The position numbers and the translations under genes were made by a program. Of a stretch of DNA of 64,000 bases, positions 4,579-60,457 are shown in pieces. Positions within the stretch are counted from its first letter, which is position 1; the number at the start of each line of letters is the position of its first letter. Source of the stretch: Eledone cirrhosa (lineage: Eukaryota); the NCBI GenBank assembly GCA_964016885.1, contig OZ024740.1:440820001-440884000 (forward strand). The letters run 5' to 3'. The notes under the pieces were generated by a model. It searched no databases. It worked only from the letters and a program-made list of their open reading frames with translations, and was not told where the DNA came from.

Positions 4579-4792
4579 AGGAAAAGAGTCAGGACTCTGA
4601 CGGCAGAGCTCAAGCCGTTTCCACGGCTATTTCTAGACTCCAGAAATTTCTGAGTCCAGAAATACCCGTCAAAACGGCTTGAGCTCTGCTTTCGGGTTCC
4701 TGACTCTTTTTCTATTACCCACTCTACTACCCAAAGTATCAAGTATTCTGGTGCGTTATGGTCCACCTGGTTCCTTACCACACCTCCTTCGT
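4579..4792 (+). mobile_element. Short inverted PLE family A end (arm-arm-tail) in (TA)n
   Basis: 4579-4645 is inverted to ~4650-4712. Tail ctattacccactctactac...ccttcgt is shared with 21232-21310 and 60358-60439. Confidence 0.85.
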
Positions 4793-4810
4793 TATATATA
4801 TATATATATA

Positions 4811-5157
4811 ATGGAAAACGAAAAATCAGTGATGCATCTGAACTCAATTTATTGTGTTACAATTGTTTCGCCGGCGGACAGCTCGAGACGTGATCATTGT
4901 GCATATTCTCCCATTGAGAGAATATGCTCCGAAATCATTAGACGTGTCCGTCGAACCTGCAGATCCAGAATCAGAGAAATTGACACAATGATCGCGTCCC
5001 GAGCTGTCCGCCGGCGAAACAATTGTAACACAATAAATTGAGTTCAGATGCATCGCTGATTTTTCGTTTTCTATTATATCATACTCTGCTCTCTAAGAGC
5101 ATAGAGTGCTCAACCGGCATACCGCCTATGGAAGCATCTTAGCTACTATCAGACACA
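4811..5157 (+). mobile_element. Family B inverted element (arm-spacer-arm-tail) in (TA)n
   Basis: 4811-4901 is inverted to 4985-5075, then an ~80 nt tail. Contains GAAACaattGTA (hammerhead stem III box). A second copy lies at 19020-19175 (-). Confidence 0.75.
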
Positions 5158-5804
5158 TATATATATATATATATATATATGTATATATATATATATATAT
5201 ATATATATATATATATATATATATATATATATATATATATATATATATATATATATATATATATATATATATATACACACACTTATATAGATGTACTGAC
5301 ATAAAAAAATCTGAAAGTAAGTGAATATACTTATATAACAAGGTGTGTTGTGAATTGTAAAGGGGGCGATAGATATTTAGGGCTTCTATTGATGTGCTTT
5401 AATATAAATATGGCAGTAACCCTATATATAATGCTGTTGCCAATATTTGCTGCAAGGATAGGGGTGGCGGAGTAACGGCGAGTGTAACTTATAATCAAAA
5501 CAATAAAAATATAAAGCCTATAATTTGAATATTCTTTTATTCTTTTACTGGTTTCAATCATTAGACTGCGGCCATGATGGGGCACCCCGTATATTTCGAC
5601 AGCTTCCCCAAGAAAATCGAGATTAATTTGGGTGGCTTTTATTACACACCGAAGTTCAATGACGTTGTTAGTTCTATTCTGGAGTTTCTTTAATCAGTTG
5701 ACATGATCTGCATTGTTCTAGAACACAAGAGAACTGATATAGCAAATTAAGTGAGGTAACAATGAAACTGTAAGATGTCTCTTATTAATGCAAAAGCCAT
5801 AATA

Positions 5805-6005
5805 ATAGTTTCTGATTCGGGCACATGGCCAGCAATTTTGAACGAGGGGAAAGTCAATTAAATCGCCCTCAGTGTATTACTGGTACTTTCTTTTATCGAC
5901 CCCGTAAAGATGAAAGGCAAAGTTAACCTCGACGGAATTTTAACTCAGAACGTAGAGGACTGTAAATCTATGCTGCAAGACATTTTGCCCGGCGCTCTAC
6001 CGGTG
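5805..6005 (-). mobile_element. tRNA-derived SINE (Octopus-type)
   Basis: Reverse complement of the 6324-6545 family (gttctgagttaaattccgtcgaggttaactttgcctttcatc). Confidence 0.85.
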
Positions 6006-6323
6006 ATATGTATAGATAATAATATATATAATTCAGTCATTTGTGACTGGTTTTTAATAAGAGTGAAAATATTAAGTTGAGAGCATGATATCATTTTTAC
6101 CATCTTTCTTTTTATGTCAGTATAAAGCAATTTGGTGAAACATTTGCCACAAAAATAATTACAAACGTCTGGAATGTATAAATCTAGGAAATAAGATTTC
6201 TATTTCATTAAGAATTCTAATAAACTAGTATTAACTTCTAGAAACAACTGATATTTCCGAGGATGGAAACCATAAGTACTGAAAATGATTATTCACTTAT
6301 TTTTTTATTATTAGGTTAAACAA

Positions 6324-6761
6324 GTGGCGGTGGATTGGCAGAATCGGTAGAGCGTTGAGAACCATGCTTTGCAGCATAAAGTTATGGCCCTTTATGTTCT
6401 GAGTTCAAAACCCGCTGAGGTTAACTTTGCCTTTCATCCTTACGGGATCGATAAAATAAAGTACCAGACACGCATTGGGGTCGATTTAATCGACTTCCCC
6501 CTCCCCAAAATTGCTGGCCTTTTGCCTATATAAGAAACCATTATTTAAGGGCGGTGGATTGACAGTATCGGTAGAGAATCGGACACCATGTTTTTCAACA
6601 TAGAGTTACACCCCTTTACCGTCTGAGTTCAAATCCCGCCGAGGTTAACTTTGTCTTTCATCCTTACGGGGTCGATAAAATAAAGTACCAGTAACGTACT
6701 GAGGTCGATTTAATCGATTTTCTCCTCCCAAATTACTGGCCTTCTGCCTATATAAGAAATC
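6324..6761 (+). mobile_element. Tandem SINE dimer with 17-bp target-site duplication
   Basis: Two ~220 bp copies with A-box (tggcagaatcgg) and B-box (gagttcaaatcc). attattaggttaaacaa occurs at 6307-6323 and 6762-6778. Confidence 0.88.
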
Positions 6762-57563: not shown

Positions 57564-58490
57564 TTATAGCCCTAGTCTACCCCCCCCCCCCCCCGGGTCA
57601 TTATGGGGTTTGAGGGCGAGGTAAGTCCTACGCAATCTATGTTTACATGCAGTAACCAGTTCATCTTTCTTGTTTAGGAGTTGGTCCGTCGAAAACAGCA
57701 TTTGTAAAGTTTCCTCCGAGCATAAATTGCACGGACGGCGTCCTCCCGTGTAAGAATTGGCTCTGGACAGTAATCTCCAAGTGAGATCATAGGTGATGTT
57801 GTTGTCCTTGAGGTCCCATATGTGGCCCGAAAGTGTAGTGGCGTGACGCCAGGCCGGGTTTCGGAAGGTATGTCTATGTTGGTATAGCCGGGTCTTGAAG
57901 TCACATGCGGTAAGTCCTATATATGCTTTGTTGGAGGTATCCGTCCTCACGTTGCACTGGTAGATCACATTACGGTCTCTGCATCTATTGTCGAGTGGGC
58001 AAATAGATCTATCCGGGCAGTTACACCTCCTGGTCGGTTCTCCACTATATTTAGGTTATTTCTGCCATCGGGGTTGAGTTTTTTGTTGTTAGAGGAGACG
58101 ATGTTTTGTGCGAAGTTTGGTGTAGTGCTGTAAGAGAGTTTGATGGTATTTTTGTTAATTATGTTGTGGTAGCGGTGTTGTAATGGGAAGTGTTTTTCAA
58201 TGAGCCTAAAGAATAGTTTCCCGATGGGAGTTGTCACCTCTGCGTTGTGGGGAGGATTGAACCATGTTACATTGCGTGAGCGGCGGTGTCTCCTGCTGGT
58301 TCCGCTAATGGGAGCTGGACAGTAGGATATTTCCTCCCGGAAACCACTCCGCTTGAGGGCCTGGTTGTAATAAGGCGCATGTTCATCGAATATCCGCTCA
58401 TTAGCTGACAAACGGGATATGCGGAGGGAGATGTTTTTGACCAGGTTGTTTGTGATGTTCCTAGGATGGTTTGATCGGCGGTGGATGTAG
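57564..58490 (-). pseudogene. PLE RT C-terminus + GIY-YIG (1-nt frameshift near 58047)
   Basis: YIHRRSNHP...LSANERIF..PYYNQALKRSGF..VTWFNPP..KLSYS; VIYQC..YIGLT..KTRLYQH. Confidence 0.88.
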
Positions 58491-58491
58491 T

Positions 58492-59151
58492 GGGAAACTA
58501 TTCTTTAGGCTCATTGAAAAACACTTCCCATTACAACACCGGTACCACAACATAATTAACAAAAATACCATCAAACTCTCTTACAGCACTACACCAAACT
58601 TCGCACAAAACATCATCTCCTCTAACAACAAAAAACTCAACCCCGATGGCAGAAATAACCTAAATAGCAGTGGAGAACCGACCAGGAGGTGTAACTGCCC
58701 GGATAGATCTATTTGCCCACTCGACAATAGATGCAGAGACCGTAATGTGATCTACCAGTGCAACGTGAGGACGGATACCTCCAACAAAGCCTATATAGGA
58801 CTTACCGCATGTGACTTCAAGACCCGGCTATACCAACATAGACATACCTTCCGAAACCCGGCCCGGCGTCACGCCACTACACTTTCGGGCCACATATGGG
58901 ACCTCAAGGACAACAACATCACCTATGATCTCACTTGGAGATTACTGTCCAGAGCCAATTCTTACACGGGAGGACGCCGTCCGTGCAATTTATGCTCGGA
59001 GGAAACTTTACAAATGCTGTTTTCGACGGACCAACTCCTAAACCAGAAAGATGAACTGGTTACTGCATGTAAACATAGATTGCGTAGGACTTACCTCGCC
59101 CTCATACCCCATAATGACCCGGGGGGGGGGGGGGGTAGACTAGGGCTATAA
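58492..59151 (+). CDS. PLE GIY-YIG endonuclease, in frame, 5'-truncated
   Basis: RRCNC..CPLDNRCRDRNVIYQC..AYIGLT..FKTRLYQH..TTLSGHIW..CNLCSEE..LLN..ACKH. Confidence 0.88.
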   Translation, partial: GKLFFRLIEKHFPLQHRYHNIINKNTIKLSYSTTPNFAQNIISSNNKKLNPDGRNNLNSSGEPTRRCNCPDRSICPLDNRCRDRNVIYQCNVRTDTSNKAYIGLTACDFKTRLYQHRHTFRNPARRHATTLSGHIWDLKDNNITYDLTWRLLSRANSYTGGRRPCNLCSEETLQMLFSTDQLLNQKDELVTACKHRLRRTYLALIPHNDPGGGGGRLGL

Positions 59152-60253
59152 CACCCCACTTGCCGATTTTGCAATGGGTAACCCCTGCTTGCCAAGGGAG
59201 ACGTAAGATCTTCTTTGTATTCTTTTATCGCTTCCTTTATTTCCTTCCCCCCTCTCTCCTTAGTCCTTCTACCCCAGCTCTTCTCCTTTGTCGGCGTCTT
59301 TTCTCGCCCACCCGAGGCTGCCCTTTGGCCCCTTGTAGCCTTAGTACCCCCACCCCCTCCCCTAGTCTATGATAGATTTGGCGGACTCCGCCCTTTATAG
59401 CAGTTGGTTTAGACCCCGGATACTTGTCCCCTTTTTCCGACCGCTCCCACTATTCTCTGTGCCCTCTATATTTCTTAGTGGCACTTATGCCTTATTTTTT
59501 CGTTTCAGTATTTCTTTCTTCGCTTTTCTTTTGGGCGGGGTGGATTCTGAATTTATTTTTCCGTATTCTACCTTTGCTTCGTACGAAGTTTCATGTAGCT
59601 TGTTTTAAATCTTTTAGAGTTAGCATTAGTATATATTTTTCTCGGGACTCAGAATTATTATCTCGTACAAGTTCACTTTGCTGCACTGGGTGGTTGCTGG
59701 CATTGTGCCCGGGATGGAAACCTTTATTGTTTATTTCGTGGTAGTCTCTTTAGTATTTTGGCCCCTTTTGTTGACCCGTCACCGTATCATTTACGTACTT
59801 ATACCTCTTAAAAGGGTCCTTGCCTAATTCGTCCCACCTAGTTCTTTTACTTATTTCGTTATTTCTTTATTTCTTTCTTTACTTCTTTCTTTCTTTATTT
59901 ATTTATTTATTCTAGCCTAACAATAGCTAGAGACCTAGGTCGTAGAATTTAATTTACTTTACTTTTTTCTTTACACTTATTTGCTTTTCTTCACTCTCAG
60001 TATTTTTTCTTTCCTATATATTTCTACCCCCCATTGTTCTACCTACCGTTCCGACTTCCTCCCCCTCCCCCTCCCCTGTATCTTCTTTGACCTCATGCCC
60101 AGCTGTAGCTGGCACTACCAACGCTTGATTGGGTCTACTCCAGCCCCTCCCCTCTTTCTCCTACTGGCAGGTTTAGCCACCATCTCCCCTACTAATTTGC
60201 AACCACAGAATTACTACTGATTTTTGACAATCACTTTGACCATATATGGAATT

Positions 60254-60347
60254 ACCCCTTGAGAAGATCGGCTATTTAAATACCAGGATAAATTTTCATT
60301 TAGTCCAGAATTAGCCGTCGAAACGGCTTGAGCTCAGCTGTCGGGGT
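60254..60347 (+). ncRNA. Hammerhead ribozyme, U3-A8 variant
   Basis: Mirror of 56371-56464. Confidence 0.8.
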
Positions 60348-60457
60348 CTTACTGGTTCCTATTACCCACTCTACTACCTCAAGTATTGAGTACTTTGGTG
60401 CGTTATGGTCCACCTGGTTCCTTACCACATTTCCTTCGTTATATATATATATATATA

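Follow-up and report, generated by a model that had tools for sequence, protein, structure and literature searches.

Palindromic insertions and the elements they derive from

The window analysed here is a 64,000-nt stretch of the Eledone cirrhosa genome (contig OZ024740.1, positions 440820001-440884000, in a 3.0-Gb genome of 1,796 contigs) that is rich in (TA)n tracts. Located within it are palindromic insertions of five families, designated A to E, of which A and E are Penelope-like elements (PLEs). PLEs are the least understood class of retrotransposons, and the steps of their integration that follow first-strand priming are still open. Palindromes in the window were detected by opposite-strand self-BLAST and by direct reading of the sequence, and both upheld the architecture proposed in the initial annotation of this DNA. 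All seven sites that it named consist of an arm, in some cases a spacer, a second arm and a tail, in which the arms are inverted copies of an element 3' end and the tail extends one arm (Table 1). The tails of families A to E measure 64-84 nt, within the 55-90 nt that had been claimed. The flanks are microsatellites, mostly (TA)n as stated there; family B tails often adjoin (CA)n as well, and some family B tail-less arms adjoin (GA)n.

Table 1. Insertions and hammerhead-like junction in the window (position 1 is the first base of the window; S is the internal 3' boundary, position 0 of the family A coordinates defined in the text)
Feature	Position	Strand	Details
Family A copy 1	4580-4792		tail 4716-4792, 77 nt; arms 84% alike (self-palindrome 4577-4715)
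Family A copy 1, tail-less arm	4580-4646	-	outer end at S, adjoins (TA)n
Family A copy 1, tailed arm	4647-4715, tail 4716-4792	+	tail 33-mer starts at 4750
Family B insertion	4810-5157		tail 5076-5157, 82 nt; arms 82% alike
Family B, tail-less arm	4810-4901	-	followed by spacer 4902-4983
Family B, tailed arm	4984-5075, tail 5076-5157 (82 nt)	+	from reading of the sequence
A/B chimera, part 1	19018-19176	-	family B tail 19018-19099 and arm 19100-19176
A/B chimera, part 2	19177-19195	+	19 nt of family A (-18 to 0) as tail-less arm; ends at S by (TA)n
Family A copy 2	19782-21310		tail 21234-21310, 77 nt; arms 95% alike
Family A copy 2, tail-less copy	19782-20729	-	paired part 19782-20293; by homology to the reference reaches about -829
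Family A copy 2, tailed arm	20730-21233, tail 21234-21310	+	arm reaches -511
Family C mini-palindrome and tandem array	39870-41000	+	mini-palindrome 39870-40013, then 419-nt units, followed as far as 41000
Family E insertion	42249-46273		tail 46204-46273, about 70 nt; 274-nt arms 96.7% alike, 3.4 kb apart
Family E, long tail-less copy	42249-45930	-	RT frame 43466-44650, GIY-YIG frame 42681-43244
Family E, short tailed arm	45931-46203, tail 46204-46273 (about 70 nt)	+	274 nt matching inverted 42249-42522
Family D insertion	46400-47682		tail 46400-46483, 84 nt, at left end; arms 95% alike
Family D, tailed arm	tail 46400-46483, arm 46484-46741	-	spacer 46742-47430
Family D, tail-less arm	47431-47682	+	continues into (TA)n
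Family C insertion	55409-56279		tail 55409-55472, 64 nt, at left end; arms 92% alike
Family C, tailed arm with tail	55409-55869	-	second tail-like segment 55833-55895 at inner part
Family C, tail-less arm	55870-56279	+	end adjoins (TA)n
Family A copy 3	56362-60439		tail 60363-60439, 77 nt; 1,866-nt arms 99.25% alike
Family A copy 3, tail-less copy	56362-58491	-	2,130 nt, including 269-nt spacer 58223-58491 (ORF residues 447-536)
Family A copy 3, tailed copy	58492-60362, tail 60363-60439	+	ORF residues 537-748 and 3' untranslated region
Family A putative hammerhead-like three-way junction	60254-60347	+	would-be cut after 60342; GUC at -22 to -20

A complete family A unit of 3,542 nt was taken from a tandem array elsewhere on the same contig, in which five matches are spaced 3,542-3,543 nt apart. 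The unit contains one 748-codon open reading frame (ORF) with the motifs KRLRWR, HSDKTG (HSDKTGNLY), LYRDDG, CNCPDRSIC, VIYQC..YIGLT, CNLC and CKH, and the C-terminal part of the protein, with its GIY-YIG-like motif, is encoded on both strands of family A copy 3. No Pfam family was matched by the family A frames, and the assignment of reverse transcriptase (RT) and GIY-YIG endonuclease (EN) regions therefore comes from these motifs and from 244 homologues of about 700 aa. The homologue P0001 carries RWK, and many of the homologues P0002-P0121 have the precomputed Pfam labels PF26215 and PF28514. The single ORF has YRDD followed by VIYQC..YIGLT, the order of RT and C-terminal GIY-YIG that defines EN-containing PLEs. 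The partial tandem copies of PLEs, termed pseudo-long terminal repeats (pseudo-LTRs), are also present, as a unit junction at locus L098 and as partial tandems at L082, L093, L095 and L168. The RT and GIY-YIG frame, the tandem units and the inverted truncated copies all agree with the Penelope-type insertion that had been proposed.

For the Hydra clade of PLEs, Craig et al. 2021 (PMC8557442) describe DKT in place of DKG, RWK, a CxCX5C linker, no CCHH inside the GIY-YIG core, and CxxC and CxH near the end. Family A has in common with that description DKT, the CxCX5C linker, CxxC and CxH near the EN end, the single short ORF and (TA)n targets; CCHH was judged absent by eye. It differs in carrying RWR rather than RWK, in its 3.5-kb unit rather than one below 3 kb, and in the absence of the canonical CUGANGA hammerhead. 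By these motifs, family A is placed in the Hydra clade of PLEs. The EN region of family A aligns with the GIY-YIG region of family E (E = 0.001), and family E itself gave weak Pfam matches to RVT_1 (E = 0.0076) and GIY-YIG (E = 0.0022), both under the Pfam cut-offs. Because cysteines and histidines surround its GIY-YIG core, family E is read as a second PLE, of a type different from family A. The families had been described as unrelated, which did not hold up: A and E belong to two PLE clades, and, as the chimeras show, a single event can join A to B.

Exact matches to the tail 33-mer of family A number 19,930 genome-wide, and there are none to its reversed control. The tail 32-mers of families B and D have 614 and 423 exact copies, respectively. 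No coding frame was found in the copies of families B, C and D that were read. Family C includes an array at 40004-41000 of head-to-tail 419-nt units, each made up of a 64-nt tail-like segment (beginning at 40004, 40423 and 40842) and a body; the array is preceded by a short inverted arm, and its non-coding tandem layout is reminiscent of retrozymes.

Two fixed 3' boundaries and one tail per insertion

Family A copies were located genome-wide with exact patterns, for which reversed patterns served as controls; the zero point of the family A coordinates is S, the final T of ..GTTCCTAT (window 60362). The tail-less arm of family A ends at this sequence, 20 nt past a GUC, and the tail ends in ..CCTTCGT; the annotation had given the same tail end and had placed the end of the short arm 10-20 nt past the GUC. 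The tailed sample comprised 73 distinct copies, 70 of them fetched from the first 100 listed places of the tail 33-mer and three from the window. The tail ended at the identical base in 73/73, point variants aside. An inverted partner whose outer end is S, beside the flank, was present in 55 of these copies, three tails (in two structures) had a tailed partner, and 15 were solo or otherwise arranged. An automated probe of the 73 copies concurred once four spurious calls had been removed and four unreachable ones added.

The same pairing was seen from the opposite end. In the youngest family A subfamily, the 28-mer of the tail-less end occurs 6,588 times genome-wide and that of the tailed end 7,006 times, far more than chance would give, compared to 0 for the reversed controls. 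Among the first 95 tail-less ends, 61 had a tailed partner by exact match, 57 of these at <120 nt; on inspection of the other 34, 23 proved to be paired, 7 had no partner up to 1.5 kb away and 4 stayed ambiguous. The probe found a partner in 13/32 copies of family B, tail-less in all 13, and three more partners were recognized by eye. The family B boundary, ..CGTTTTCTATT, is unchanged where the flank is (GA)n. In family D, tail-less partners were found for 13/27 tails, and one structure was two-tailed.

Long head-to-head pairs were sampled with a 25-mer at about -135, which has 3,126 exact matches; the first 100 places led to 27 pairs, 26 of them fetched and one (L034) already in the tailed sample. 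Exactly one tail was present in 24/27, none in one (L089) and two in two (L095 and L034). Independent choice of a start site by each end would give about half mixed pairs, for which a hand calculation puts the binomial tail at about 2e-5. Two 3' boundaries are fixed in each family, the internal S and the unit end, separated by 64-84 nt, and a typical insertion has one arm at each. The ends of arms and tails are fixed, not random, and the objection that the annotation had foreseen, arm ends scattered at random across copies, falls away. In all five families, the motif at S is TA-rich. In the array of full family A units at L098 (same contig, 91472800-91482700), units meet as ..CCTTCGT TAT CTAGCTCC.., which suggests that the outer start site likewise lies at a UAU.

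The window also contains tail-less palindromes, absent from the annotation's list, at 16665-17482 and 21549-21776, with terminal inverted repeats (TIRs) of 163 and 84 nt, respectively, and TA flanks, which resemble TIR elements or miniature inverted-repeat transposable elements (MITEs). Their presence could suggest that the tailed insertions are likewise DNA transposons or foldback elements with TIRs rather than retroelement insertions. We give this very little credence: the arms are the 3' ends of elements encoding RT and GIY-YIG, their inner ends differ between copies in the manner of 5' truncations, the tail is always at one end, and head-to-tail tandem units exist. Hardly more credible is that the palindromes are artefacts of assembly or amplification, although such structures are reported to trouble short-read assemblies (Craig et al. 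2021). They occur at thousands of loci with unique flanks and differing junctions, and the same paper describes this architecture in many other genomes. The arms in the window have diverged by mutation (82-99% alike), a spread which indicates that the arms of one copy aged as separate DNA and argues against an assembly artefact. A weaker point is that, in raw reads from restriction site-associated DNA sequencing (RAD-seq) of a different study, the palindrome at 4580-4715 is covered about 15-fold at its centre. Over 4380-5150, contigs of three runs and the RAD-seq reads gave short unitigs with repeat-driven joints, and no record spanned a palindrome.

PLEs are described by Craig et al. 2021, who cite Evgen'ev & Arkhipova 2005 and Arkhipova 2006 for the architecture, as having pseudo-LTRs, an adjacent inverted 5'-truncated copy, a 30-40-bp tail at one end and a bias for (TA)n. 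The insertions analysed here share the inverted 5'-truncated neighbour, the extension at one end, the partial tandem copies and insertion into (TA)n. They differ from the published description in their tails, 64-84 nt instead of 30-40 bp, and in that the commonest family A product is a palindrome of about 190 nt without coding sequence; the one-tail rule of this architecture is quantified here as 24/27.

Copying of the two arms

The two arms of one copy differed at 0-1 of 36 positions in 26/45 copies, compared to a between-copy mean of 8.9. Because subfamily variants are common to both arms, the arms would derive from RNA of a single source. Junctions differ among copies that are identical to the same subfamily, which indicates that the palindromes arose one by one rather than by multiplication of a palindromic master. 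Arm lengths were compared in 25 long palindromes, namely 23 of the 24 one-tail pairs (L096 was omitted for its third piece) and the two long window copies. The tail-less arm was longer in 13, the tailed arm was longer in 10, and the two were equal within 5 nt in 2. In a sample of 42 mini-palindromes, used for inner ends and junctions, the tail-less arm was longer by >10 nt in 11 and the tailed arm in 2. The spacer of family A copy 3 carries ORF residues in frame with the tail-less arm.

Four copies have arms that do not overlap: in L023, L160 and L179 the tail-less arm (0 to about -57) is joined to only the last 44 nt of the tail (+34 to +77), and in L173 to the last 49 nt. The A/B chimera in the window joins a tailed family B arm to a stub of family A that ends at S, and L111 is a second, more complex A/B chimera. 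Solo tail-less copies also exist, as the partnerless 7/95 above. At the junctions of the 42 mini-palindromes, 28 had an overlap of 0-5 nt and 9 had 1-12 nt of filler, while 5 were too complex to parse. Because either arm can be the longer, and because non-overlapping products, chimeras and solo tail-less copies occur, two separately primed cDNAs are favoured over a fold-back.

These are insertions of PLEs that entered microsatellites, and target-primed reverse transcription at the two ends of a single break most likely produced the palindromes. The element's GIY-YIG nuclease would cut both strands of the repeat; one DNA 3' end would prime cDNA at the unit end to give the tailed arm, and the other would prime at S to give the tail-less arm. 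Both cDNAs would usually be templated by RNA of the same source, and each would terminate independently. Their 3' ends would then be joined head to head by a template jump or by end joining, with 0-5 nt of overlap or a few filler bases, and the excess of the longer cDNA would appear as the spacer. Most family A events would halt 54-64 nt inside S and leave palindromes of about 190 nt. The annotation had offered priming from both break ends or a cDNA that folds back; the former fits the data, and the unequal arms, the non-overlapping products and the chimeras speak against the latter.

Copying back in this sense would begin with a single cDNA primed at the unit end, which folds back on or switches to its own nascent strand and copies outward until it is cut, or joined to the TA repeat, at the first TA-like motif, S. 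This is unlikely, even though it would account for the near-equal arms and 0-5 nt junction overlaps of most mini-palindromes, for the TA-rich motif at S in every family, and for L008, in which the short inverted piece meets the flank at a different AAUA motif. It forbids a tail-less arm that exceeds the tailed one, the state of 13/25 long palindromes and 11/42 mini-palindromes, and it cannot yield the non-overlapping products, the A/B chimeras or the solo tail-less copies. Nor does it sit well with the spacer of family A copy 3, which extends the reading frame of the tail-less arm, or with a family B boundary that stays the same beside (GA)n.

The deeper arm end fell between -54 and -64 in 35/42 mini-palindromes, with none deeper in the sample, and the four non-overlapping copies share a stop at +34 or +29. 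Both stop zones sit at the 3' foot of predicted weak hairpins, and a polymerase stall may account for them, as may equally well a bound protein or an RNA whose 5' end is near -65. Run-off on RNA cut at -20 was considered for tailed arms that end at -18 to -26 and was dropped, since their ends are not exact.

Long palindromes are unstable, and this, together with internal deletions between direct repeats that were seen in both arms (L012 on the left; L059 and L040 on the right), lends something to the idea that perfect long palindromes were formed first, by any route, and that later central deletions produced the unequal arms and spacers. We regard this as improbable. The young copy L078 has arms 100% identical to the reference and yet 142 and 153 nt long, and L079, likewise young (99% identical), has arms of 2,651 and 204 nt. 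That the +34 boundary recurs in four independent copies speaks for a polymerase stop rather than random deletion, and chimeras between families are left unaccounted for.

Several observations weigh against priming from both ends of one break. The arms stop within 10 nt of each other in 29/42 mini-palindromes, which resembles a hairpin turn, and such near-equal arms require a stop zone at -54 to -64 that is shared by both cDNAs and for which our sole candidates are a predicted weak hairpin and a bound protein. Central deletions in formerly perfect palindromes could be an alternative source of unequal arms. In the published in vitro work on one PLE, the start sites did not differ between the strands, and the strict one-of-each pairing in the genome is not explained by the model. 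The published start sites are not homologous to the cut DNA, whereas the five internal sites here lie at TA-rich motifs, where microhomology may contribute in a manner that cannot be separated here. The steps of the mechanism are all drawn from end products in assembled sequence.

The in vitro work is that of Frangieh et al. 2024 (PMC11167929), in which the protein of a Poseidon PLE from Anolis cleaves and extends both strands. Reverse transcription begins there at a pair of neighbouring internal sites on the RNA, which delimit the tail, and the substrate is uncleaved RNA. The insertions of the present genome resemble that system in their two fixed start sites, which here lie 3' of a hammerhead-like motif and there 3' of the hammerhead, in a template uncut at that motif and in AT-rich targets. 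They differ in that the Poseidon element belongs to another clade and uses start sites that are non-homologous to the target and the same on both strands, whereas the internal sites here fall in TA-rich motifs and genomic copies use one site per end. The architecture (Craig et al. 2021) and the two-start-site mechanism (Frangieh et al. 2024) are thus already published, a literature whose absence is the annotation's chief gap, and the genomic products described here come from another clade. In this genome, one PLE family has left thousands of integration products that are young and independent of one another. These support the model of two start sites and both strands, proposed on the basis of one in vitro system, and carry it over to a second PLE clade. 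Three constraints are added: one start site per end, two cDNAs that stop independently and are joined with little or no homology, and recurrent stop positions. New relative to the published work are the longer tails, the strict pairing of one site per end, the independent stops of the cDNAs and the dominance of palindromes of about 190 nt.

In LINE-1 (L1) twin priming, reportedly described by Ostertag and Kazazian in 2001, both ends of a break prime on the RNA and an inverted 5' part results. Priming by both break ends is common to the two systems, and the four non-overlapping products look just like twin priming. In the present insertions, however, both primers normally copy the same stretch, with the result that sequence is duplicated, and the second primer is at a fixed site and not at a chance match. 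Adjacent segments without duplication, the hallmark of the L1 type, were found only in L023, L160, L173 and L179, and the arms overlap in nearly all other copies; the annotation's statement that sequence is duplicated, unlike in L1, thus holds for most copies, with these four exceptions. A search of the literature found no paper that joins Penelope, twin priming and GIY-YIG.

A stronger reading is that PLE integration in cells is obligately asymmetric, with the two ends of one break starting on RNA of one source at two fixed sites, one per end. We advance this tentatively, as somewhat short of an even chance. If it is true, the palindrome is the default product and a plain full-length copy the exception, and, owing to the stop zone 54-64 nt inside the inner site, a family of some 20,000 copies yields chiefly hairpin loci of about 190 nt. 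In this way, perfect inverted repeats would have been seeded across the genome by the thousand. The strict pairing, which is unseen in vitro, would suggest that the protein acts as a dimer, each half of which binds one start site together with one DNA end.

The template extended past the GUC, as had been claimed: arms longer than 20 nt show that the RNA was uncut there, in agreement with the uncleaved substrate of Frangieh et al. 2024. Of the template forms that the annotation had listed, multimeric ones are plausible from the tandem arrays of families A and C. The second tail-like segment at the inner part of the family C insertion at 55409-56279 indicates a template that exceeded one unit. 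L168 (same contig, 25028502-25030152) is a mini-palindrome in which the tail continues directly into a unit, covers its first 821 nt and then resumes at -59 to +77; it was produced from a template of more than one unit, with an additional switch.

The hammerhead-like motif and other repeats in the window

The GUC near S, which had been called a cleavage site, lies within a putative type I hammerhead-like motif in family A; a canonical hammerhead was not found, which weakens that designation. The predicted order is helix I (ACCCC/GGGGU), the core UUGAGAA, helix II with a 39-nt loop, GAAA, a 6-bp helix III with a palindromic loop, and GUC. With U3 and A8, the core conforms to UUGANAA, and two older lineages have C3 with A8. 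Across 28 copies, pairing was retained in 93.4% of 532 cells, compared to 12-51% when the partners were slid, with no compensatory change in a family that is too uniform for it. The fold of the 3' 206 nt of family A is no more stable than shuffled sequences (z = 0.93). Cervera & de la Pena 2014 (PMC4209133) report PLE hammerheads with U3-A8 core covariation and a palindromic loop 3. The family A motif resembles these in its type I topology, U3 and A8, G10.1-C11.1 and the palindromic loop of helix III, and in the arrangement of motifs on opposite strands 100-700 bp apart; it differs in that helix II has a 39-nt loop and helix III has 6 bp and is not minimal.

Rfam returned no hammerhead or other ribozyme at the gathering threshold, nor at E<=10 on 60100-60460. 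In the whole window at E<=5, there was no hammerhead or ribozyme among the 150 matches listed of 186, and the only ones above gathering among these 150 were tRNAs. No CUGANGA, the core of the canonical hammerhead of the Hydra clade, occurs on either strand of a family A unit dimer. A regular-expression search of the window for CUGANGA..GAAA with a helix II check gave one match, at 42094 in AT-rich sequence, which was taken as chance.

Most of the matches listed in the permissive Rfam scan were to microRNA families (mir-5014, mir-297, mir-3149 and others), on TA-rich hairpins and PLE mini-palindromes, for example at 39880-40003 and 17500-17588, all below gathering. TA-rich hairpins are a likely source of false microRNA calls in this genome. 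For annotation, the PLE insertions explain very abundant short TA-flanked hairpins that could otherwise be mistaken for MITEs or microRNA precursors.

Two further near-perfect tail-less palindromes of about 600 and 490 nt, at 28108-28708 and 38437-38923, resemble TIR or foldback elements and were likewise not listed in the annotation; the inversion in the second also takes in its TA tracts and an outer segment of 20 nt. A long, strand-asymmetric, low-complexity array occupies 23900-26720 (GC skew -0.45 and AT skew +0.46 in 24001-26000) and has numerous internal inverted matches to 21780-21925 and 26580-26724. Two inverted repeat blocks, 7813-8361 with 9232-9666 and 3-687 with 2048-2731, are 72-80% alike and about 1.1-1.4 kb apart. 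Sequences resembling tRNAs with a long variable arm lie at 51019-51100 (+), 52140-52220 (-) and 29380-29448 (-). Two of the three are full-length and score above Rfam gathering, and the other is partial; those at 51019-51100 and 52140-52220 make up an inverted pair 1 kb apart (87%). All of them could be genes or tRNA-derived repeats.

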